Shown here: one piece after another, positions 1-10,712 of the stretch
Layout: the number at the start of each line of letters is the position of its first letter
Numbering within the stretch: position 1 is the first letter of the stretch
Source of the DNA: Steroidobacteraceae bacterium
GTDB taxonomy: Bacteria; Pseudomonadota; Gammaproteobacteria; Steroidobacterales; Steroidobacteraceae
Assembly (NCBI GenBank): GCA_036393055.1
Contig: DASVWT010000308.1
Coordinates: 5,657-69,656 of the forward strand
Length of the DNA: 64,000 nt
Direction: 5' to 3'
Program-made: the position numbers and the translations under genes
The notes under the pieces: model-generated
Told to the model about the DNA's origin: nothing
The model's database searches: none
What the model saw: only the letters and a program-made list of their open reading frames with translations

Positions 1-1083
1 GGCCCAGTCCTCGAGGTGGCTGGGCGCCTTTGACCAGCCCTCGGCGGAATCCCCGTGACCCGGCAGGTCGAGCGACAGGGACGGACCGGTTTCGGAATCA
101 AAATTCGCGCCGCTGCCGCCGGCGCGGTGAAGCTGCACACGTCGCATCGCCCGCGACTCGCTGTTACTTTCCACTTCCGCCGTGCTTCGCGATCCGTGCC
201 GCCGCCATGCGATGTATTCGGACCCGACCCGCACGAACCCCCGCAGCTCCGAGTCGACAGGCGCGGGAGCCTCGTCGCCGGGGTGCTGCGCGAGGTGCGC
301 CGCACAGGCTTCGAGCAACGCGGCCGGGGCGTCGAAGACGACTCCTCTGCCGCGAAGGGGCTCCCGCTGCAGATGCGCGCAGAGCGGATCAGATCGGTTG
401 CTGGCCATCAACGCTGGCGCGCTGAGCCGCGGCATCCACTCCTGCGGCCGAAAAGTGAACGCCGCACGATACACAGCCCGGTAGGCATCACCCGCATCGA
501 GCAGATCCATGCAGTTGGCGTGAACGCCCTCCTTCGGCGTGACCGTGTAGGCCATCCGTGCGCCTTCGGTCGATTGATACCACGGAAAGAACACCGTCTG
601 CTCTTCCATGCGCGACCAGAGCCAGGTCATGTGAGACCCGTCCCAATGCGGCTCGAAGGGCGGGAGGTAGCGTGCGAGAAGGCTGGATCTCTCGCTCTCC
701 GTCCACGCAGGCAACCCATCAAATGCGACGGTCGCCGTCCGTTCGGGGAAGAGGGCCGCGAATGCGCAGGCGGTCGCCGCTCCGGTGTGAAAGCCATACA
801 GCGCCACACGGCCGAGGCCCAACCGATCCGCGAGAGCGGCCAGCGCGCGGGCGTAGTCGGCGCTGGTCGGATCGGGCAGCGGCAGGGGCTCGGAGCGTCC
901 GGCGCCTGGAGTATCGGATGCAATGGCGCACAGTCCCTTTGCCGCGCAAGCCCTTGCTTGCGCCAACACCGCGCGCGAGGACTGCGGCGAGCCGTGGATC
1001 AGGAGCACGGCGGGGCCGCGACCCATTCGCCTGTAGAAGACGCAACGACCGTCCACCTCGACGAAGTGGCGGGTGGCCTCCAT
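1..1083 (-). CDS. alpha/beta-hydrolase fold protein, apparent tandem two-domain form; partial (3' end beyond window edge)
   Basis: Absent from the ORF track because there is no stop in the window. Manual minus-strand translation from ATG 1083-1081 gives MEATRHFVEVDGRCVFYRRMGRGPAVLLIHGSPQSS..DTPGAGRS..VALYGFHTGAAT. A second hydrolase-like N-terminus (FVRVGSEYIAWRRHG..VQLHRAGGSG..LDLPGHGDS) begins near nt 230 and runs off the edge. The start overlaps the upstream stop (ATGA). Confidence 0.75.
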   Translation of the reverse strand, partial: MEATRHFVEVDGRCVFYRRMGRGPAVLLIHGSPQSSRAVLAQARACAAKGLCAIASDTPGAGRSEPLPLPDPTSADYARALAALADRLGLGRVALYGFHTGAATACAFAALFPERTATVAFDGLPAWTESERSSLLARYLPPFEPHWDGSHMTWLWSRMEEQTVFFPWYQSTEGARMAYTVTPKEGVHANCMDLLDAGDAYRAVYRAAFTFRPQEWMPRLSAPALMASNRSDPLCAHLQREPLRGRGVVFDAPAALLEACAAHLAQHPGDEAPAPVDSELRGFVRVGSEYIAWRRHGSRSTAEVESNSESRAMRRVQLHRAGGSGANFDSETGPSLSLDLPGHGDSAEGWSKAPSHLEDWA

Positions 1084-2132
1084 CAAATGAGGCCCGCCGC
1101 ATCGAGCGCCGCGATGACCCGCTTCTGCCGCTCCACGTAGAAGGCGTGCGTGGGGCCGATGAGATCGCCGCCTGCATCGAGGAGACTGTTCCCCGGCTGC
1201 ACTTCACGGCCGGCCAGCGCCTCGCGCCACAGGCCGATGGGCTGCCGCGAAAGCAGATTCCCCATGCCGGGACGGCGGCGATAGCGGCGCAGGCCCGCCA
1301 GATCGATCTCCGCGCAGGCCGCCATGCTCTCTCCGAAGCCGGCCTCCGCCAGAATCAGACCCCGGTAGTCGACGACCTTCGAGGAGGCATCGGTGGAGGA
1401 GGCAGGTATGGCGATGCCCTCGATCCCTGCCGTATTGGCCGACACGACGTAGGCGAGATTCTCGATGGCGCGGGCCTGCTTGGCGATGTTCTTCGGCGTC
1501 GCGAGCGCACTGGCGATCTCGCTGCTGGAATGGACGAACACCTCCGCGCCGCGCAGCGCCAGCGCGCGGGCGATCTCCGGATACAGGATCTCCTCCGACG
1601 CGATTGCCGCCAGCCGGCCGAGCTCGGTGTCGGCGACCGGGAAGATTGAATCTTTGCCATATCGGGCGATGTAGCGGTCCCAAACATCATACGGCGTGGG
1701 GCTGAACAAAGAGATCAGCCGCCGGTAGCGCAGGATCACCTTCCCCGCCGGGGCGATCACGAACGACGCCTGGAAGTAAAGACCGGGGAAGTGCGCATCC
1801 GACTCGTAGGCGTTGCCGGCCAGAAAAATCCCGGCGTCGCGCGCAATGGAGCCGAGCGCATCGTATTCGGCGCCGTCGGGCGCCAGAGCCGCTCTCCTCG
1901 CCCAGGATTGCGCGCCCTCCTGCATGGGGAAGCCCGTTAGGAAATACTCCGGCAGCGCCACCAGACGGACATCGGGACCGGCAAAGCGCTTGGCGCCCGC
2001 GATCTGGCGGCCGACCCTCTCGATGCTCGACATCATCGCTGCCCGGGTTGCCGCCGGATCGGAAATTCCACTCACGGCGTTGCAGTGCGTCTGCAATGCG
2101 AGCGCGAGATATGGCTGAGGCTCGGACATCAT
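1083..2132 (-). CDS. carbon-nitrogen hydrolase (nitrilase superfamily) protein, atypical active-site residues
   Basis: ORF track 1083..2222, start trimmed to ATG 2132 (GGGGGA just upstream; MMSEPQPYLALALQ). Family hallmarks: VALPEYFLTGFP, ILRYRRLISLF, AAIASEEILYPEIARALALRGAEVFV, AIENLAYVVSAN. Confidence 0.85.
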   Translation of the reverse strand: MMSEPQPYLALALQTHCNAVSGISDPAATRAAMMSSIERVGRQIAGAKRFAGPDVRLVALPEYFLTGFPMQEGAQSWARRAALAPDGAEYDALGSIARDAGIFLAGNAYESDAHFPGLYFQASFVIAPAGKVILRYRRLISLFSPTPYDVWDRYIARYGKDSIFPVADTELGRLAAIASEEILYPEIARALALRGAEVFVHSSSEIASALATPKNIAKQARAIENLAYVVSANTAGIEGIAIPASSTDASSKVVDYRGLILAEAGFGESMAACAEIDLAGLRRYRRRPGMGNLLSRQPIGLWREALAGREVQPGNSLLDAGGDLIGPTHAFYVERQKRVIAALDAAGLI

Positions 2133-2339: not shown

Positions 2340-3869
2340 TCAGGCAGCGCGCGACCGGGTCGCCGGCCACGGTTGGAGCCGCGCCGCGTTCGCGCCTGCA
2401 GCCCGCCCCGAGATCATCGCTTCGGTCAGGTAAGAGCCGTTCTGATAGAGATTGGAGAACATCGACCCGAGCTCACCGGCCTCATACAGACGCGGAATCG
2501 GCGTGCCGTCGTGACCCAGCACCTCGGACTCTATGTTGCGCCTGGCGCCGCCGCCGGTACAGACGATCGCCGGCAGGATCTCGATGGCGTAGAAGGGCGG
2601 CTTATCGATGGGCGCAAGGGTCTCGCGGGTGCGTCCGAACTCCTCGTCCTTTCCGCGCGCGCAGCTCTCGTTATATCGCCTCACCGTTTCGGCCAAAGCA
2701 GCCGGGTCGCGCTGGATCTTCTGCGCCAGCGCTTCAATCGAGTCGGCACGCGCGATCCAGCCGCGGCTGACTTCCGCCGCGTTGTCCTCACTCCACTCGT
2801 ACTTCTCGACGACCGTATTCCACGTCATCACGGTGGTGACCAGGCGATTGTACACGCGGGTGGTCTCATCGAAGATCATGTGCATCGGCAGCACCCGGTG
2901 GTGCGGCGTGTCGATCCACTCCCCGTGCTCGCGCTGCTTGTAGTGCGTCAGCTGCCATTCCCCGGTCTCGTTGAAGAAGCGGCGGTGATCGCGGCCGATG
3001 TCGATCCAGCTGAAGCTCTGCCAGAAGAGCTGGCGCAGGAACACCGTGTCGTGGCCCGGGTAGCGAAAGCCCGGCCAGATGCCGCCCGACTGGCCCTGAT
3101 TGCGCAGGTGCCACATGTCGGCGCCCGCCTTCTGCAGGATCCGGATGCCGTCGCCGTCGTTGCCCGGGGTTCCCAGCGGATGGGCGTGGGCCAGGCCGAA
3201 GTAGTTGCGCTGCATGTCGAGGTTGTTCTCGAACCCGCCGGTGCAGAGCACGACGCCTCGGCGCGCCCGGACGTTGAGGCGCTTCCCGCCGGACTCCACC
3301 ACGGCACCGAACACCTCGAGAGTGTCCGGATCCTGGATGAGATCGACGATTCGCGACTCGAAGCGCCTGCGGATGCGCGTCCTGCGCTCCACGCAGGCGT
3401 GGAAGGCGAGCCATACCCCGCTCGGGACCGGCAGGATGGTGGCGGTGTGCGCCACCGCTTCGGCGGCGCCGAATTCCGGGAATTCGAGCACCGCGATGCG
3501 ATCGGACCAGCCGGTCCCCTGGACGTACTGCGCTCCCGCCTCGGCGGCACGCTGTTGAATGTAGGGCTCCAGGGCCACCATCCGGCGCGCCCAGGCATCG
3601 AGCATGTCCTCCGGAATGGGATTCGGGGCGCTCATGGCGCGCTGATAGCTCTTCAGCGCCTCGAGGTTCTTCGAGATCAGCAGCGACTGGCCCGATACCC
3701 GGGAGTTGCCGCCGCAGAGGGCCTCCGGCATCTTCTCGAGGATCAGGACATCGATCTTCGGATCGGCGTCATGCGCCTCGATCGCCGCCGCCGCTCCCGC
3801 CATGCCGAAGCCGCAGATGAGGACGTCCGTTTCCTCGTGCCACTCGCTCACACTATTCAAACTTGCCAT
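2340..3869 (-). CDS. FAD-dependent oxidoreductase (fumarate reductase/KstD-like flavoprotein family)
   Basis: 509-aa ORF. N-terminal dinucleotide fold DVLICGFGMAGAAAAIEA..LILEK..GGNS. C-terminal FAD-closing motif RLYEAGELGS. GGGAG RBS. Confidence 0.85.
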   Translation of the reverse strand: MASLNSVSEWHEETDVLICGFGMAGAAAAIEAHDADPKIDVLILEKMPEALCGGNSRVSGQSLLISKNLEALKSYQRAMSAPNPIPEDMLDAWARRMVALEPYIQQRAAEAGAQYVQGTGWSDRIAVLEFPEFGAAEAVAHTATILPVPSGVWLAFHACVERRTRIRRRFESRIVDLIQDPDTLEVFGAVVESGGKRLNVRARRGVVLCTGGFENNLDMQRNYFGLAHAHPLGTPGNDGDGIRILQKAGADMWHLRNQGQSGGIWPGFRYPGHDTVFLRQLFWQSFSWIDIGRDHRRFFNETGEWQLTHYKQREHGEWIDTPHHRVLPMHMIFDETTRVYNRLVTTVMTWNTVVEKYEWSEDNAAEVSRGWIARADSIEALAQKIQRDPAALAETVRRYNESCARGKDEEFGRTRETLAPIDKPPFYAIEILPAIVCTGGGARRNIESEVLGHDGTPIPRLYEAGELGSMFSNLYQNGSYLTEAMISGRAAGANAARLQPWPATRSRAA

Positions 3870-3882
3870 GGATAGACTCCCA

Positions 3883-6171
3883 TCAGAATCGAATCCGCCC
3901 CTCGAGACCGAACATCTGCTTGTCCGGCAACGCGTAGGCGAACGAGCGCTCCGGCCCCAGGAATACCGGGCTGAACCCGGCGGCCGAAAAATCGATGTAG
4001 CGCAGGATGTAGTTCACGTTCCGGCTGTTGGTGAGATTCGTTCCCCAGGCCGTGATCGACCATAGATCCGTCTCGACGCCGAGGCGCGCGTTGAGAATGC
4101 CCTGCGAGCCGGTGTCGGCGAGATTCTCGCTCTCGTCATAGCGGCTGGACTTATAGGAATACGCCGGGCGCAGGAACACCCTGACCCCAAGGGACGTGGG
4201 AATCGTCAGATCCGCTTGCAATCCGCCCATGAATCGCGGCACATCCGGCAACGTCTTGCCCCGGGCGTTTCCCGTCGGACCCTGGAGGCAGGCCCCATCG
4301 GTGATGGGACCGTCAAAGTAGACATAGTCGGGCGTGTACTGGCCCGCCAGATTGCACAGATCCTGGAAGCCCTGGAAGCTGTCGTACACCGACTCGCTCC
4401 AGGCTGCATCCGCTCGCAGGGTCAGGACCCGGCTGACCTTCGCTGCCGCATTCAGCTCGATGCCCTGCGTATGCGCCGCACCCGCGTTCGTGTCGTAGGA
4501 GTTGATGCCGCCGCTCGGTGTCACGACCGTCGAGGTCACCTGCAGGTCGTGGATCCTGTTGTAGTAGACGTCCGCGTCCACCAGCAGCCGCCGATCCAGC
4601 CATTCGCTCTTCACGCCCAGCTCGTAAGCCAGCAGCTTCTCCTCCCCGAACGAGTCCTGCGGGGTGTACGGGCTGTTGAAGCCGCCCGGCTTGGTGCCCT
4701 CGCCGATGGAGGCGTACAACATCACCTGTGGCCGGACCTTGTAGTCGAGCACCACGCGCGGGAGCACCGAGTCATACGCCGCGTACTCGTCATAGCTCGC
4801 GAGCGGCTGCACATAGCGGATGCCGTCGCGCTGCAGCCGCAGCTCCGCGCTCAAGGTCCACTGGGGATTGAAGCTGTACTGCACCTGCCCGAAGACCGCA
4901 GCGTTGTGATCGCTGCCGGTGTAACTGTTGAGCGCCCCGTAGAGTAGCAGGTCGTAGGGCGCGAACACGTCCGCCGTCGCATCGATCTCGTAGTACCAGT
5001 ATGCGCCGAGCTGGTAACGCAGCGCCTGGTCTTGTGGAGACGTGAGGCGCAGCTCCTCGGATATCGAGTGACTGTCGGTATTGGTGGCCGTGAGCAGCGC
5101 ATCGGGCGGAAGCCCCGTGGAGGGCGACAGCACCAGCGCATCGTAGGACTGGTCGAGCCCCACCTTCTGGTGGTTCGTGTCCCAGCCGGTGGTGTTGGTG
5201 ACGGTGAAGCCGTTGAAGCGGTAATGCGCAATCAGGCTGGCGCGGGTCGTGGAGCTGGTATAGCCGTGATCGACCGGCGTGCTTTCGAGATTGACGTAAT
5301 CGTGCGGATGAATCGTTCCACAGTAGTACGGATAGACGTCGAGGAAGCAATTGTCCTGGCTTGCATCCTGATAGCCGATGGCTGCCGGGCCGTCGTCATC
5401 GCGGCTGTAGCCGACGCGCACGGTAGCGTCGAATGCGTCACCCGCAACGTAGCGCAGGCTGGCCGAGCCGGCCTTGGTCTGCTGAGTGTCATCCTTCCTG
5501 CCGTCGTACAGGTTGAGGTACTCGCCGTTGCGGTCGTAGTAGCTGCCATTGACCTGGAAAAACAAGGTGTTCGACACGATGGGGCCTGAAGCGTTTCCGG
5601 AGAAGCGCTGATAGCCGTAACTGCCGAATGACGCGTCCAGATCGCCCTCGAAGTCGTTGGTCGGCTGGCGCGTGATGTAGTTGATCGCACCCGCCTCCGT
5701 GCCGCGTCCGTAGAGCGCCGATTGCGGTCCGCGCAGGACTTCCACGCGCTCGACGTCCGAGAGGTCGAAGCTCTCCAGCGAGCCGCGTACGTACACGCCG
5801 TCGACGAAATTGGCGTAAGGCTTGTAGGACAGCGCCGCATTCGAAATGCTCGTAACGCCCCGGATCACCGTGCTGGTGCTCGAGTCCTGGCGGCCGAACG
5901 TGCTGCCGTAGCTCATCCCCGGCGTGAATTGCGCGATCTGACTCAGGTCGGTATAGCCCTGCTGGGTGATTTGCGCGGAAGTGACCGCAGTGACGGCCAT
6001 CGGAACCTCCTGCAGGGGCAGGGCGACCTTGGTGGCCGTCACCGTGACTTCCTGGAGCTGCAGCGGCTCGGTCGTGCCCGATGCGCCAGAGCCGCTTTGC
6101 GCCATGGCGCTTTGGATGCCGCCGCCGGTGAGGGCCAGTGCAAGGACGAGCGCGGGACGGATTTGAGTCAT
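3883..6171 (-). CDS. TonB-dependent receptor
   Basis: ORF track 3883..6243, start trimmed to ATG 6171, giving signal peptide MTQIRPALVLALALTGGGIQSAMA. Plug motifs VTVTATK and VEVLRGPQSALYGRG. C-terminal ..GLEGRIRF aromatic terminus. Confidence 0.9.
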   Translation of the reverse strand: MTQIRPALVLALALTGGGIQSAMAQSGSGASGTTEPLQLQEVTVTATKVALPLQEVPMAVTAVTSAQITQQGYTDLSQIAQFTPGMSYGSTFGRQDSSTSTVIRGVTSISNAALSYKPYANFVDGVYVRGSLESFDLSDVERVEVLRGPQSALYGRGTEAGAINYITRQPTNDFEGDLDASFGSYGYQRFSGNASGPIVSNTLFFQVNGSYYDRNGEYLNLYDGRKDDTQQTKAGSASLRYVAGDAFDATVRVGYSRDDDGPAAIGYQDASQDNCFLDVYPYYCGTIHPHDYVNLESTPVDHGYTSSTTRASLIAHYRFNGFTVTNTTGWDTNHQKVGLDQSYDALVLSPSTGLPPDALLTATNTDSHSISEELRLTSPQDQALRYQLGAYWYYEIDATADVFAPYDLLLYGALNSYTGSDHNAAVFGQVQYSFNPQWTLSAELRLQRDGIRYVQPLASYDEYAAYDSVLPRVVLDYKVRPQVMLYASIGEGTKPGGFNSPYTPQDSFGEEKLLAYELGVKSEWLDRRLLVDADVYYNRIHDLQVTSTVVTPSGGINSYDTNAGAAHTQGIELNAAAKVSRVLTLRADAAWSESVYDSFQGFQDLCNLAGQYTPDYVYFDGPITDGACLQGPTGNARGKTLPDVPRFMGGLQADLTIPTSLGVRVFLRPAYSYKSSRYDESENLADTGSQGILNARLGVETDLWSITAWGTNLTNSRNVNYILRYIDFSAAGFSPVFLGPERSFAYALPDKQMFGLEGRIRF

Positions 6172-6242
6172 CGTTGGAACTCTCTCGCTGTTGCTCGATG
6201 TGACCGCACCTGCGGCCGAATGGTCGCCGCGGAGCCGCGGCA

Positions 6243-7034
6243 TCAGTGCTGTTTCCGGCCGGACCCGCGCCGCAGCGCCATCCGGTACCGATATCTGTCG
6301 GCGCGGTAGTGGGCGAGAGTCCGCTCCACCCCTCTACCAGTGCTATCGAATACGACGCGCTCGATGATGACGAGCGGCGCGCCCGCCGGAACGCCGAGCA
6401 AGTGCGCCATCTTCGTCGAGGCGAGGCCCGCTCCGATCTCCTGATGCGAGTCGCCGATCCGGATGCCCGCCTGCTCCAGCAGCGCGAAGGTCGGTGCGCG
6501 CGTGGGACTCGGAGGCGGCACGCGCCGCGCGATGTCCTCCGGCACCCAGTTGATGACCTGTCCGAGAGGCGATTGGTGGAGCATCCGCAGATGGCTCACC
6601 CGCTGCACTTTTCCCTCGCCGCTCATATGCAGTGCAGCGCGAGTCGCCTCGTCGGGTTGCAGGTATCTGACCGAGAGATTGCACGCCGTGGTCAAATGAG
6701 TGAAGTCGCTGACGCTGTCGAGGACGTGGCTCCAGTCGACCGGCAGCGGCGGCAGCCGCAGATCGGGCGTGACGAACGTGCCGCGCCCCTGTTGGCGCGA
6801 GAGCCATCCGTCGCGCTCGAGCTCGTCCAGGGAGCGACGCACGGTGATGCGCGATACATTGAAGGAGCGGCACAGCTCTGCTTCGGTGGGAATGCGTTGC
6901 GCGGGCACGTAGACGCCCTCCCGTATCCAGCGCTGAATCGCGACGTAAACCTGGTAATAGCGCGGCGTGGGCGCATCGGCAGCGAGCGAGACGGGGCCAC
7001 CCGCCGATGCCGCCTCGGGGATGTCCCGCGCCAT
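6243..7034 (-). CDS. GntR-family transcriptional regulator (HutC/UTRA type)
   Basis: ORF track 6243..7061 (GTG); ATG 7034 is used here, so the start is uncertain. Winged-helix signature RIPTEAELCRSFNVSRITVRRSLDELERDGWLSRQQGRGTFV plus a ~150-aa effector domain. Confidence 0.85.
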   Translation of the reverse strand: MARDIPEAASAGGPVSLAADAPTPRYYQVYVAIQRWIREGVYVPAQRIPTEAELCRSFNVSRITVRRSLDELERDGWLSRQQGRGTFVTPDLRLPPLPVDWSHVLDSVSDFTHLTTACNLSVRYLQPDEATRAALHMSGEGKVQRVSHLRMLHQSPLGQVINWVPEDIARRVPPPSPTRAPTFALLEQAGIRIGDSHQEIGAGLASTKMAHLLGVPAGAPLVIIERVVFDSTGRGVERTLAHYRADRYRYRMALRRGSGRKQH

Positions 7035-7042
7035 CGTGGCTC

Positions 7043-8263
7043 TCACCGGGCCCAGCGCCACTTGCTGGCGACATACCGGGCCATCGCCTCGCCATCCGGC
7101 GGCAAGGTCTTGGCCAGGATGTCCGGCGGATACGGCCCGACGTAGCGATCGAACACCGGCCGGTAAAGATCCATGTAGGCCATCGGCTGGCGGTGGAAGC
7201 GGCGGAACTGCCCGATGGGGATGGGCACCACGACTTCCTGCTCCTGGTTGTCGGCGTCGGCCTTGCCGAGGAGCTCGCCGCGAGGCCCGTACGCGACGCT
7301 GCCGCCATACCCCTGTGAAATGCCCCAGCCGCCCGCACTGGGGAAGAATCCAGGATTGTCCGGCGAAATCGCGTTGTTCGCGACGCAGCTATAGATACCG
7401 TTGTAATAGGCATCCGCCTGAGCATCGATTGGGGTGAACCCGCCGGTGGCGGTGCGCAGGAATATCTCGCAGCCCTTCATGGCCGCGGCGCGCGGCAGCT
7501 CAGGATCGCCCTGCGTCGAGGTGGTCGTGAAGTTGCCGATGTCGGTGCGCACGACCGGCACCACCGCGTCCCAGCCGTACATCTCCACGAAGCGGCTGAG
7601 ATTGTCGAAGATGGTGGAGGTGAAGACCTCGAATTTGCCGCCCGCCCATACGCCGCGCAGGTCGCGCGCCTTCCAGCTCTTGTTGATGATCTTGCCGCTG
7701 GGCGCGATGGTCGTCGCGATCGACAGCACGTGCCCCGGCCAGTCGCGGTCCCTGGCATAGGACCCGAACACGATGTAGCAATCGTGCTCGCGCGCCTTGG
7801 CCGAGAGCGCCTCGGTTTCCTCGCCCGGCAACTCGATCGCGATTTTCAGAGCGTCTTTTCGATCCCACCGGTCGGAGTATCCGGTCAGCGCGAATTCGTG
7901 GAAAAAGAGCAGATCGTTCTTGAGGAAGAGGCCGCCATGCTGGGCCTCGTCGATCAGCTCGATCATGTGGGCGAGGTTCGCCTTCAGGCCAGGCTTCGGG
8001 TTGGCGGCGTCGACCTGCCGGACACGCATCTGCACGACGGAGATGGCGATCACCTCCTTGCGCAGAGGCACGGTCGAATAGGTGCCGTCGGTGCGCAGGT
8101 CGATCGTGTTTTCCCCCGGCGGCAGCGGGTCGGCCGCCGCCCGGGCCGGCACCGCCGCGCGCGCGCCGGACGGCAGCCCGGCCCCCATTGCGACGCCCAG
8201 CGGGACGGCGGCGGCCAGTACGTTGCGGCGGGTGATGGCGGGCGGGACGGCGGATTTCTTCAT
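7043..8263 (-). CDS. Tat-exported nitrilase-superfamily (aliphatic amidase/formamidase-like) protein, atypical active site
   Basis: ORF track 7043..8416, start trimmed to ATG 8263. MKKSAVPPAITRRNVLAAAVPLGVAMGAGLPSGARA is a twin-arginine signal with an AxA site. Mature part: LLFFHEFALTGY, INKSWKARD, IGNFTTTSTQGDPELPRAAAMKGCEIFLR. Confidence 0.8.
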   Translation of the reverse strand: MKKSAVPPAITRRNVLAAAVPLGVAMGAGLPSGARAAVPARAAADPLPPGENTIDLRTDGTYSTVPLRKEVIAISVVQMRVRQVDAANPKPGLKANLAHMIELIDEAQHGGLFLKNDLLFFHEFALTGYSDRWDRKDALKIAIELPGEETEALSAKAREHDCYIVFGSYARDRDWPGHVLSIATTIAPSGKIINKSWKARDLRGVWAGGKFEVFTSTIFDNLSRFVEMYGWDAVVPVVRTDIGNFTTTSTQGDPELPRAAAMKGCEIFLRTATGGFTPIDAQADAYYNGIYSCVANNAISPDNPGFFPSAGGWGISQGYGGSVAYGPRGELLGKADADNQEQEVVVPIPIGQFRRFHRQPMAYMDLYRPVFDRYVGPYPPDILAKTLPPDGEAMARYVASKWRWAR

Positions 8264-8297
8264 GTGGCTCGGCCTGCTGTCGTGGGGGTGCGATATT

Positions 8298-8343
8298 GTT
8301 ATAGCAAAAATACAAATCGTCGACAAGCCTATTGTCCGGACAT
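8298..8343. promoter_or_regulatory. divergent control region: palindromic operator TTGTCCGGACAT plus minus-strand sigma70-like promoter
   Basis: The 12-mer at 8332-8343 matches the recurring palindrome TTGTCCGGACAA. On the minus strand: TTGTCG (8326-8321), 17-nt spacer, TG-extended TATAAC (8303-8298), about 35 nt upstream of ATG 8263. Confidence 0.5.
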
Positions 8344-8397
8344 TTTTTTCGGACCATCGGCGGGTCTTGGCGGCGGCGCACCCGGGCGGCGGTAAAA

Positions 8398-8421
8398 TGC
8401 TATAATCGTAAGTCAATTGAC
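8398..8421 (+). promoter_or_regulatory. TG-extended -10 promoter element followed by perfect 10-bp palindrome
   Basis: TGcTATAAT at 8398-8406. GTCAATTGAC (8412-8421) lies at the expected transcription start, 22 nt before GTG 8443. ATTGAC recurs at 8434-8439. Confidence 0.45.
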
Positions 8422-8442
8422 CCGCAGCGGGAGATTGACCCA

Positions 8443-9159
8443 GTGAGACATCGCAACGTCCGCGGCACGATCCTCTACACCTCGAGGAAGCCCGAGCGCT
8501 TCGGCCAGCGCCGCGGCATCGAGCACTTCAACTTCACGCATCACCACGACGGCAAGACGACCCTGCGCGCTTATGTGGAGATCGAGGAGCCCGAGCCGAC
8601 CGTCCTGCGCGACGTCGTCTACTCCCTGGACGAGGCGCATCGGCCGATGGACTGCCACGTACGCCTTACCGTCGGCGACCGCTTCATGGGATCCGGGTGG
8701 TTTCGCTTCACTCCGCAGTTCATCGAGTGCGAGTCTTACGGGCCCTCCATAGGACGCGTGTCGCAGCGCATGGAGCTCGTGCAGCCGCTCGATGGCTTCG
8801 GAACGCATCCGGTGGTAGCGGACGGCCATTTGCTGTCGCATTTCGCCTGGACGTCCGGACAGACCCGCCGGCTGCATCTGCGGGTGCCCTCGCCCGACCT
8901 TCGCGGAGCCTCACCGCCGCTGCTCGCCGAGGTGAGCATCGATGCGCGCTACGTCGGCCAGGAGGAAATCCAGGTCCAGGCGGGCCGCTTCGCCGCGCGG
9001 CACTTCCAGTACCTGGATACGGGCGGCGGCGGCTTTACGTCGCAGCATCCCCCATATGATCTGTGGATCACCGACGATGCGGATGCGGTGATGCTGCAGG
9101 GCGGCGTGCAAGGGCACATGCTGACCTGGTACGAGCTCGCGGCTTTGGAGCGCACGTGA
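8443..9159 (+). CDS. hypothetical protein (238 aa)
   Basis: ORF track 8332..9159. The upstream part overlaps the promoter/operator region, so the start is set to GTG 8443 (GGGAG 9 nt upstream). No domain I can name. Stop overlaps the next start (GTGA 9156-9159). Confidence 0.6.
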   Translation: MRHRNVRGTILYTSRKPERFGQRRGIEHFNFTHHHDGKTTLRAYVEIEEPEPTVLRDVVYSLDEAHRPMDCHVRLTVGDRFMGSGWFRFTPQFIECESYGPSIGRVSQRMELVQPLDGFGTHPVVADGHLLSHFAWTSGQTRRLHLRVPSPDLRGASPPLLAEVSIDARYVGQEEIQVQAGRFAARHFQYLDTGGGGFTSQHPPYDLWITDDADAVMLQGGVQGHMLTWYELAALERT

Positions 9160-10712
9160 CCGAGACCGCAGCGGCTGCGGCGGGGAAGACGTTGGCCGGG
9201 GCGGAAGCAGGGCTCCGCTCGGTGGCCGTCAGATCACGGGTCACCGCGTTCATCGACAACGCGTTCGAGTCCGCGGGTGCCGGGGAGGTGCTGCCGGTGA
9301 CCGATCCGGCACTCGAGCGCCGGGTAAGCGAGGTGGAAGAGTCCGGTCCGGCCGTGGTCGACCGGGCCGTGCAAGCGGCCCGTCGGGCATTCGCGCAGGG
9401 GCCGTGGCCCCGCATGGAGGTTGCGCAGCGCCAGACCATCCTGCGGCGGGTGGCGGCACTGATCAGAGAGCACGCGGAGGAGCTGGCGTATCTCGAATGT
9501 CTCAACTCGGGCATTCCGATGCGGCATCTGGCGCTGGGACAAATCCCGCGGGCCGCGCTCAATTTCGACTTCTTCGCCGAGTTCATCGGCCAGGTGGCCG
9601 GAGAGACCTACGGCCAGGATTCGCGCTACCTGACCCTGGTCACACGCGAGCCGGTGGGCGTCGCCGCGCTCATCGGGCCGTGGAACGCACCGCTGGCGCT
9701 GACCTCCATGAAGATCGCCGGTTGCATCGCCTTCGGCAACTGCTGCGTCGCGAAGCCGGCCGAGCAGACCCCGCTCGCGGTCGCCAGGCTGATGGATTTG
9801 ATCGTCGAGGCCGGTATGCCGGCGGGCGTCGTGAACATGGTCTGCGGGCGCGGCCCCGTGACCGGCGACACGCTGGTGAAGCACCCTCTGGTGAACCTGG
9901 TCTCCTTCACGGGCGGCACGGCGACGGGGCGCGCGGTCATGGCCACGGCGGGAGCGGGATTGAAGCCCTGCTCGATCGAGCTCGGCGGCAAGTCCGCGAA
10001 CATCGTGTTCGCCTCAGCCGATGTCGAGCGGGCGCTCGATGGGGCGTTGCTCGGCATTTTTTCCAACAACGGCCAACAGTGCCTGGCGGGCTCACGCATA
10101 CTGGTCCAGCGGCCGATCGCACGAGACTTCATCGACGCCTTCGCGGCGCGCGCGGCGCGACTCAGGGTCGGAGATCCGATGGATCCCGCGACCGAGATCG
10201 GCCCTCTCGCCTTCCGCGCCCATTACGACCGCGTGCTTTCCTACGCAAAGGCAGCCCGGTCGGAAGGCTCACGGCTGCTCACAGGCGGCGGCCCGGCAAA
10301 GGGCTTCGAGCGCGGCTTTTACATGGAGCCGACGGCCATTCAGGTCGCCGACCACCGCCACCGCCTCTGTCAGGAGGAAGTGTTCGGCCCGCTGGCCACG
10401 CTACTCGTGTTCGATACGGCCGAGGAGGCGATCGCGCTCGCCAACGACACGCGCTTCGGGCTCGTCTCCTACATCTGGTCGGACCATCTGCCGACCGCGC
10501 TGCGCACAGCACGCGCGATGGCAAGCGGTGTCGTTTGGATCAACACGCCCATGGTCCGGGAGCTGCGCGCTCCGTTCGGCGGTGTCAAGGAGTCAGGGAT
10601 GGGGCGCGAGGGCGGCCGCGCTTCCATGCAGTTCTATACGGTGGAGAAGACTACCGCCATCGCGGTGGGCGATGTGCCGATGGTCCGCCTGGGGGCCCTG
10701 TCCGATTCATGA
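9156..10712 (+). CDS. NAD(P)-dependent aldehyde dehydrogenase
   Basis: ORF track 9063..10712, start set to GTG 9156, which overlaps the upstream stop. Hallmarks: FTGGTATGRAVMA, IELGGKSANIVF (Glu), NNGQQCLAGSRILV (Cys), EEVFGPL. Confidence 0.85.
   Translation: MTETAAAAAGKTLAGAEAGLRSVAVRSRVTAFIDNAFESAGAGEVLPVTDPALERRVSEVEESGPAVVDRAVQAARRAFAQGPWPRMEVAQRQTILRRVAALIREHAEELAYLECLNSGIPMRHLALGQIPRAALNFDFFAEFIGQVAGETYGQDSRYLTLVTREPVGVAALIGPWNAPLALTSMKIAGCIAFGNCCVAKPAEQTPLAVARLMDLIVEAGMPAGVVNMVCGRGPVTGDTLVKHPLVNLVSFTGGTATGRAVMATAGAGLKPCSIELGGKSANIVFASADVERALDGALLGIFSNNGQQCLAGSRILVQRPIARDFIDAFAARAARLRVGDPMDPATEIGPLAFRAHYDRVLSYAKAARSEGSRLLTGGGPAKGFERGFYMEPTAIQVADHRHRLCQEEVFGPLATLLVFDTAEEAIALANDTRFGLVSYIWSDHLPTALRTARAMASGVVWINTPMVRELRAPFGGVKESGMGREGGRASMQFYTVEKTTAIAVGDVPMVRLGALSDS

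Follow-up and report, generated by a model that had tools for sequence, protein, structure and literature searches.

The defining mechanistic feature of the nitrilase superfamily is a cysteine on which a thioester or thioimidate intermediate is built, and to our knowledge this residue is used for catalysis by all members studied so far. One account describes a Glu-Glu-Lys-Cys tetrad that is well conserved across the nitrilase family, and places the Cys on a strained beta-turn-alpha 'nucleophile elbow' (PMC7616060). Here we describe P0001, a gene in a 64,000-nt stretch of contig DASVWT010000308.1 from a soil bacterium of the Steroidobacteraceae (assembly GCA_036393055.1; the whole stretch is referred to as the window), which encodes a nitrilase-superfamily protein with a predicted twin-arginine translocation (Tat) signal and no Cys at the catalytic site. 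A search of the full-text literature, with subscription journals and supplements outside its reach, found no description of a nitrilase-superfamily protein that is Cys-less or Tat-exported. The gene and its features are as follows.

7043..8263, minus strand: P0001 gene, encoding a 406-aa Cys-less nitrilase-superfamily protein with a predicted Tat signal (translation, Pfam PF00795, homologues, dN/dS)
8156..8263, minus strand: predicted Tat signal peptide, residues 1–36 (sequence and h-region hydropathy)
8216..8233, minus strand: twin-arginine motif TRRNVL, residues 11–16 (sequence, family conservation)
7892..7906, minus strand: FFHEF, the catalytic-Glu motif (Glu123), in which Glu follows the clade-specific His122 (profile alignment, row counts)
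7664..7678, minus strand: SWKAR, the catalytic-Lys motif (Lys198; alignment with AmiE Lys134, row counts)
7628..7630, minus strand: Glu212, candidate second Glu of the Glu-Glu-Lys-Cys tetrad (row counts, position after Lys)
7499..7537, minus strand: former nucleophile-elbow segment GNFTTTSTQGDPE, residues 243–255, with Thr248, Ser249, Thr250 and Gln251 and no Cys (alignments, row counts)

The start ATG of P0001, at 8263, lies within a longer minus-strand open reading frame (ORF; 7043-8416), and its Met is matched by the starts of homologues, including that of a second copy, 89% identical, elsewhere in this assembly. The translation opens MKKSAVPPAITRRNVLAAAVPLGVAMGAGLPSGARA and carries FFHEF at residues 120–124, SWKAR at 196–200, GNFTTTSTQGDPE at 243–255 and KGCEIF at 263–268, with three Cys residues in all (162, 265 and 293). 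Its sole Pfam domain, CN_hydrolase (PF00795), spans residues 77–345 (E 4.1e-20; 72.6 bits against a cut-off of 23.2), which confirms the superfamily assignment made in an earlier note on this DNA. Scores against the NCBIfam equivalogs fell far below their cut-offs, at 29.5 bits against 427 for aliphatic amidase NF009802 and 33.8 against 406 for formamidase NF009803, and both matches covered the N-terminal third only. More than 500 homologues were found. The ESM Atlas model of the exact P0001 sequence has a predicted TM-score (pTM) of 0.82, and the structural cluster nearest to it is 100% CN_hydrolase (TM-score 0.83 over 347 residues) and may be P0001's own, the ESM Atlas matches being limited to the family's own clusters. 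No fused forms were found at E≤1e-20 in a search of 712–2030 aa, which is weak evidence.

The best solved relatives of P0001 by profile are aliphatic amidase AmiE and formamidase AmiF (PDB 2uxy, 2plq, 4gyl, 2dyu and 2e2k; E 2.5e-16 to 3.6e-11), with the family profile matching the aliphatic amidases at E 2.5e-16. P0001 resembles them in its CN_hydrolase domain, its aligned Glu and Lys motifs, the post-elbow helix (PE..R..A.KGAE..R) and the C-terminal tail, and differs from them in having no Cys, a shorter elbow, His in place of Pro before the Glu, and a Tat signal. In the profile alignment, from which the numbering is counted, FFH-E123-F stands opposite VVFP-E59-Y of 2uxy and W-K198-A opposite R-K134-I, so that Glu123 and Lys198 match AmiE Glu59 and Lys134. 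Conservation was counted over 204 family rows (of 213 in total) from Proteobacteria, Cyanobacteria, Acidobacteriota and others. His122 and Lys198 are each found in 204/204 rows, Glu123 in 203/204, Gln251 in 203/204, and Glu212, which lies 14 residues past Lys198, in 202/204. From its position after the Lys, Glu212 is a candidate equivalent of the second tetrad Glu. The earlier note had read the Glu of FFHEF and the Lys of SWKA as kept, and the alignments and row counts agree.

Closer still is a cytoplasmic, Cys-bearing sister group (P0139, P0149, P0151, P0158, P0166, P0169, P0193 and P0220), which matches the family by hhalign with a probability of 100% and 42% identity over 332 columns. The two share an N-terminal Y-x-x-VPL, the motifs PGEETE, WPGH and HWKA, a TT.(H/Y)DVLD..V..YG.DAV.PV.RT.IGNI block and a C-terminal PPNL..Y.P.D....RW. 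The residue before the catalytic Glu is His in the P0001 clade and Pro in its Cys-type relatives. The sister group also differs from the family in keeping the Cys together with Pro-Glu and in having two extra elbow residues: the elbow reads IGNIATxVCSEGFxPE in these nearest Cys-bearing relatives and IGN(I/F)xT(S/T)S(V/T)Q(R/G)(E/D)PE in the family, with shared Gly-Asn and Pro-Glu anchors. The segment from Gly243 to Pro254 is thus two residues shorter in the family.

The nucleophilic Cys is missing from the site in every register that we obtained and from 204/204 family rows, as the earlier note had proposed for P0001 itself; the only Cys seen between Gly243 and Pro254 is one at position 246 in some sequences (18/213 rows). 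P0001 might still be an ordinary Cys amidase if the loss were an artefact of alignment, frameshift or assembly, or if another of its three Cys residues acted as the nucleophile. Cys265, in MKGCEIF, is one example, and it does stand opposite a Cys of formamidase, albeit a non-catalytic one. However, position 265 is Ala, Gly or Thr in 195/213 rows, which removes this Cys as a substitute, and 5/121 family proteins have no Cys anywhere. The Cys-less segment recurs in rows from independent assemblies and in the second copy, and contigs from independent soil runs match the P0001 gene piecewise with 0 differences. We consider it extremely unlikely that P0001 is a Cys amidase of the usual kind. Because the nucleophilic Cys is absent in every register, we call P0001 a Cys-less homologue of the nitrilase superfamily, non-canonical by mechanism.

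Which residue now occupies the place of the Cys depends on how the shortened segment is aligned. MAFFT set the Cys opposite Thr248, and hhalign of the family against the sister profile put it in a gap between Thr248 and Ser249. In hmmsearch, a profile hidden Markov model (HMM) of 23 Cys-bearing representatives placed the Cys opposite Thr250 in P0001 and in a gap after Ser249 for three relatives, with low posterior probabilities. HMMER against formamidase set it opposite Gln251. The distance from Cys to Pro is 6 in 25/25 non-deletion rows, and right-anchoring on Pro254 makes 248 the Cys column, 249 Cys+1 and the mostly hydrophobic 247 Cys-1. Ser is common at Cys+1 in deletion and non-deletion groups alike, and in the same register the basal P0145 and P0160 keep Glu at Cys+2. 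Over the 204 rows, position 248 is Ser in 160, Thr in 43 and Ala in 1; 249 is Ser in 196, Ala in 5, Thr in 2 and Pro in 1; and 250 is Val in 120, Thr in 49, Ile in 31, Ala in 3 and Leu in 1. Since the Cys-to-Pro spacing is conserved, the register that puts Thr248 in the Cys column, as the minority Thr form of a mostly Ser position, appears to be the best supported by these alignments, although it is not proven. The earlier note's placement of Thr at the nucleophile position is therefore upheld in part: spacing and MAFFT favour Thr248, but hhalign, hmmsearch and HMMER disagree, and the assignment is unproven.

The N-terminus of P0001, MKKSAVPPAI-TRRNVL-AAAVPLGVAMGAGLP-SGARA, fits the Tat pattern of S/T-R-R-x-hydrophobic-hydrophobic, an h-region, and an A-x-A c-region with a basic residue. 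Its n-region is basic (K2, K3, R12 and R13), its h-region, VLAAAVPLGVAMGAGLP, is moderately hydrophobic (mean hydropathy 1.79), and its c-region is SGARA, in which A-R-A precedes a putative, rule-inferred cleavage site. The arginine pair, seen by the earlier note as a clear twin-arginine signal, is no chance feature, because it is present in 110/117 family proteins whose N-terminus is extended by 25 residues or more, because R12 and R13 each reach 90% conservation or more among 36 aligned sequences from different phyla, and because the host's own assembly carries tatC (contig C245; TatC PF00902, E 6.8e-71, above cut-off). The 7/117 proteins that lack the pair start inside the hydrophobic region and look like truncated gene calls. 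Taken together, these features suggest that P0001 is exported to the periplasm by the Tat system.

The P0001 gene is intact and under purifying selection. Compared with the second copy, its ratio of nonsynonymous to synonymous substitution rates (dN/dS) is 0.117; 14/43 residue differences fall in the first 53 residues and none between residues 211 and 278. The second copy lies in the same assembly (3.9 Mb in 455 contigs, 77% complete, contamination 4.2%) on contig C167:4335-11574, where both the Tat-type gene and a second nitrilase-fold gene of the window, described below, recur with the same spacing at 89% and 87% identity, respectively; C167 either arose by segmental duplication or comes from another strain binned with the first. 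The gene was also found in soil-metagenome runs of several studies, with 8 runs holding at least half of the sampled words, and in the soil contigs 32/39 of the differences listed inside the gene are at third codon positions. The sequencing-run search listed no RNA runs carrying the gene; two runs labelled TRANSCRIPTOMIC and flagged 'probably DNA' held only partial, divergent contigs of it.

A scan of 185,579 species genomes (one per species) for the family pattern returned 377 stretches encoding relatives. The best 80 of these came from Alpha-, Beta- and Gammaproteobacteria, Cyanobacteria and Acidobacteriota, with single metagenome-assembled genomes (MAGs) of Bacteroidota, Marinimicrobia and Nitrosopumilus. 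The last, a MAG labelled Nitrosopumilus sp. (L051), carries a full-length member with 46% identity and a TSAVQR variant on a 112-kb contig of this archaeal MAG, which could reflect gene transfer or mis-binning. Within the host's order, the Tat-type gene is present in 48/151 sampled genomes with up to 6 matches per genome; it was not found in the two complete genomes of the same genus.

Of 1.84 billion representatives searched, 550 matched at E≤1e-3 and 69 were usable (at least 300 aa, both motifs covered). In the tree of these 69, all 43 rows with the deletion fall on one side of a branch with a Shimodaira-Hasegawa-like approximate likelihood ratio (SH-aLRT) support of 99.3, and the two indel columns are absent from the columns kept for the tree. 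The twin-arginine motif is present in 31/43 deletion-clade representatives and in 0/26 of the others. A two-residue shortening with loss of the Cys arose independently in P0221 (GKLAVTSSIFSPE), which lies inside the Cys-type clade and has no twin-arginine signal. Three Cys-bearing relatives (P0232, P0247 and P0273) have Arg at the place of the catalytic Lys (YRR or WRN) and, by their motifs, may form a Glu-Arg-Cys subgroup of the superfamily.

At the base of the deletion clade, P0141, P0145 and P0160 have complete, signal-less N-termini. Provided that the tree is rooted within the Cys-type rows, this signal-less, Cys-less group implies that loss of the Cys did not need export. Apolipoprotein N-acyltransferase (Lnt) offers a comparison from outside the clade, since its nitrilase-fold domain faces the periplasm and acts there, as is predicted for P0001; the match of P0001 to TIGR00546 is weak (E 0.0018), at 17.5 bits against a cut-off of 132.9. 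Lnt is an integral membrane protein and keeps its Cys, so an oxidising periplasm alone is not sufficient for the thiol to be lost. The idea that oxidising conditions drove thiol loss is weakened by Lnt and by the basal lineage.

The surroundings of P0001 are rich in genes for enzymes. Downstream of it runs a string of genes on the same strand, and a divergent pair lies on the other side.

6243..7061, minus strand: GntR/UTRA (HutC-type) regulator, directly downstream, its longest ORF overlapping the end of P0001 by 19 bases (Pfam GntR, UTRA)
3883..6243, minus strand: TonB-dependent outer-membrane receptor in the same gene string (Pfam Plug, TonB_dep_Rec_b-barrel)
2340..3869, minus strand: FAD_binding_2 flavoprotein with no signal peptide, flanked by the genes for the TonB receptor and the second nitrilase-fold protein (Pfam)
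1083..2132, minus strand: second nitrilase-superfamily gene, P0122/P0274 (Pfam CN_hydrolase, alignments)
1..1086, minus strand: alpha/beta-hydrolase at the end of the string, running off the window (Pfam Abhydrolase_1)
8332..10712, plus strand: divergent pair of a ~275-aa unknown ORF and an aldehyde dehydrogenase (Pfam/NCBIfam)

The flavoprotein at 2340..3869 is KstD-, flavocytochrome c- or TcuA-like, with every NCBIfam match below its cut-off, and the ~275-aa ORF (8332-9159, plus strand) has no match in Pfam or NCBIfam. Neighbours were counted by clustering ORFs over 80 related loci and the window, which gives 81 sources. In 33/81 sources a receptor of the TonB cluster is found no more than 10 kb away from the family gene, and 24/37 ORFs of the cluster lie within 3 kb. 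Other recurrent neighbours are a PuuE-like polysaccharide deacetylase (22 sources), a flavin amine oxidase (21), CpeT/DUF1001 (17), DUF1330 (17), an alpha/beta hydrolase (17), an isochorismatase-like hydrolase (11), the aldehyde dehydrogenase (10), an FAD_binding_4 oxidase (8) and the ~275-aa ORF (6). MFS and SSF carriers are also among them; an ABC transporter is absent from the recurrent clusters. In three loci a DUF1838-like ORF replaces the divergent ~275-aa ORF. The family loci resemble catabolic islands of varying content that would handle nitrogen compounds of the amide or ureide type. Since the NCBIfam matches of the neighbours (PuuE-like, BiuH/RutB-like, HpaE-like and TcuA/KstD-like) are all below cut-off, we name the substrate only as a broad class. 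A corrinoid, bilin or haem substrate, an idea taken from the CpeT-like neighbour and the TonB receptor, was dropped, as there was nothing to test it.

We favour the view that P0001 is a thiol-free periplasmic hydrolase, because the Glu-Lys-Glu set is near-invariant, a hydroxyl patch sits in the former elbow, the genomic context is rich in enzymes, and paralogues are numerous; we give it about an even chance. Several observations weigh against this hydrolase. The five sequence alignments yielded four registers, one of which seats residue 250, Val or Ile in 151/204 rows, at the Cys position. The hydroxyls at 248 and 249 are not strictly invariant (Ala248 in 1 row, Ala or Pro249 in 6). Both Glu and Lys are kept in only 21/43 deletion rows as against 19/26 of the others, so the triad residues decay in many side lineages. 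The basal signal-less group has Met or Ile at 248 and keeps His-Glu and Lys, and hence retention of Glu and Lys alone is no proof of a hydroxyl nucleophile. Finally, a bare Cys-to-Ser swap normally does not sustain catalysis in the nitrilase fold, and the C166S formamidase entries 2e2k and 2e2l are presumably inactive trapping mutants.

The main competing reading is a pseudoenzyme, in which the fold would have been kept after Cys loss for ligand binding, sensing or scaffolding in the periplasm, and Glu123, Lys198, Gln251 and the hydroxyl patch would bind without turnover. The defining nucleophile is lost across the whole clade, and the 22/43 representatives that also lack Glu and/or Lys include many that still have twin-arginine signals; the Met or Ile of the basal lineage, the few members that tolerate Ala at 248 or 249, and the Val or Ile that one register puts in the Cys column of most members point the same way. 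Nonetheless, the core family keeps three of the four tetrad positions in at least 202/204 rows from several phyla. Around it recur genes for catabolic enzymes and for MFS or SSF carriers rather than for binding-protein-dependent transporters or signalling proteins, a context that fits an enzyme better than a transporter-linked binding protein, and several paralogues occur per genome in different catabolic islands. We regard a binding role without catalysis as a serious rival, though less likely than the hydrolase.

The second nitrilase-superfamily gene of the window, P0122/P0274, has also lost the Cys. Its motifs, LPEYF, RYRRL and AIASEEILYPE, align with no indel, with Ser at the Cys column, Arg at the Lys column and the Glu kept, and Glu61, Arg137 and Ser178 are each found in 120/120 of its best homologues. 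There is no signal peptide in this family, again among the 120 best homologues, and the closest named homologue is from a Steroidobacteraceae MAG. The Glu/Arg/Ser family resembles P0001 in its CN_hydrolase fold, in having a hydroxyl for the Cys, and in occurring in the same islands and genomes. It differs in being cytoplasmic, in having Arg for Lys, in sitting inside the Cys-type clade of the tree, and in lacking the deletion, which makes Ser178 unambiguous at the Cys column. Given this invariant Ser, replacement of the thiol by a hydroxyl is not unique to P0001. A Glu/Arg/Ser gene lies within 10 kb of a Tat-type gene in 9/81 sources. Among the 151 genomes of the order, which are related and not independent, 40 have both genes, 8 the Tat-type only, 9 the Glu/Arg/Ser type only and 94 neither. 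In genomes of 1.1–1.5 Mb from one family (f22), one Tat-type copy is present in 8/13 and a Glu/Arg/Ser paralogue in 1/13.

This association raises a further alternative, in which P0001 pairs with the signal-less Glu/Arg/Ser protein or the FAD protein, either as a carrier for hitch-hiking export through Tat or as part of a mixed oligomer, with neither subunit active alone. Nitrilase-fold proteins are established as obligate dimers or oligomers, and the proximity of the two Cys-less families and their co-occurrence in 40 of the 151 related genomes are in keeping with such a partnership. Filament and dimer interfaces are described in one account (PMC7616060). However, most genomes with both genes have them separated by tens of kilobases, the Tat-type gene occurs without the partner in 7 small genomes of one family, the partner family stands alone in 9 genomes, and the Tat-type and Glu/Arg/Ser proteins are only ~30% identical. 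We therefore regard a carrier or hetero-oligomer as improbable.

Returning to the thiol-free hydrolase, the ancestors of the clade would be amidase-like enzymes of the cytoplasm that had Glu-Lys-Cys and the motif ...IGNIATxVCSEGFxPE. Deletion of two residues from the nucleophile-elbow segment would have removed the Cys; a His would have been gained beside the catalytic Glu (FPEF to FHEF), and a twin-arginine signal acquired in most lineages. P0001 would fold, and probably oligomerise, in the cytoplasm before export by Tat, and would act in the periplasm. Its thiol-free site would retain Glu123, Lys198 and Glu212, with the thiolate replaced by a hydroxyl of the T-[S/T]-S patch, most likely that at 248 (Thr here, Ser in most), or by an activated water. 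Type II L-asparaginase is periplasmic and hydrolyses amides with a hydroxyl nucleophile in a Thr-Lys-Asp triad, which the proposed site may formally resemble; that enzyme has an unrelated fold and no sequence relation to P0001, and the analogy indicates that the chemistry is feasible, nothing more. P0001 may cleave a nitrogen-rich compound, imported through the neighbouring TonB-dependent receptor, at an amide, ureido or ester bond; the product would then pass into the cytoplasm, where enzymes of the same island would break it down.

We tentatively extend this proposal to the pair of genes, at somewhat less than an even chance: a branch of the superfamily would have re-invented amide or ureide hydrolysis without a thiol, through a periplasmic, Tat-exported enzyme whose Ser/Thr (or water)-Lys-Glu site has gained a His beside the Glu, and would act in one nitrogen-heterocycle or ureide route with the cytoplasmic Glu/Arg/Ser enzyme. 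If true, two independent hydroxyl-for-thiol replacements would have occurred in one pathway. As read from its sequences, the clade is large and strongly conserved, with the Cys deleted, the rest of the site kept and the protein predicted to be sent to the periplasm. The current labels 'predicted amidohydrolase' and 'nitrilase-related carbon-nitrogen hydrolase' imply a mechanism that these genes cannot have. If catalytic, the family would add a new chemistry to an old fold and offer an oxidation-proof template for amidases meant for export or industrial use; if non-catalytic, it would be a widespread bacterial periplasmic pseudoenzyme. Linkage of the TonB-dependent receptor with genes of ureide and amide catabolism points to an unrecognised periplasmic step in nitrogen scavenging by soil and aquatic bacteria.

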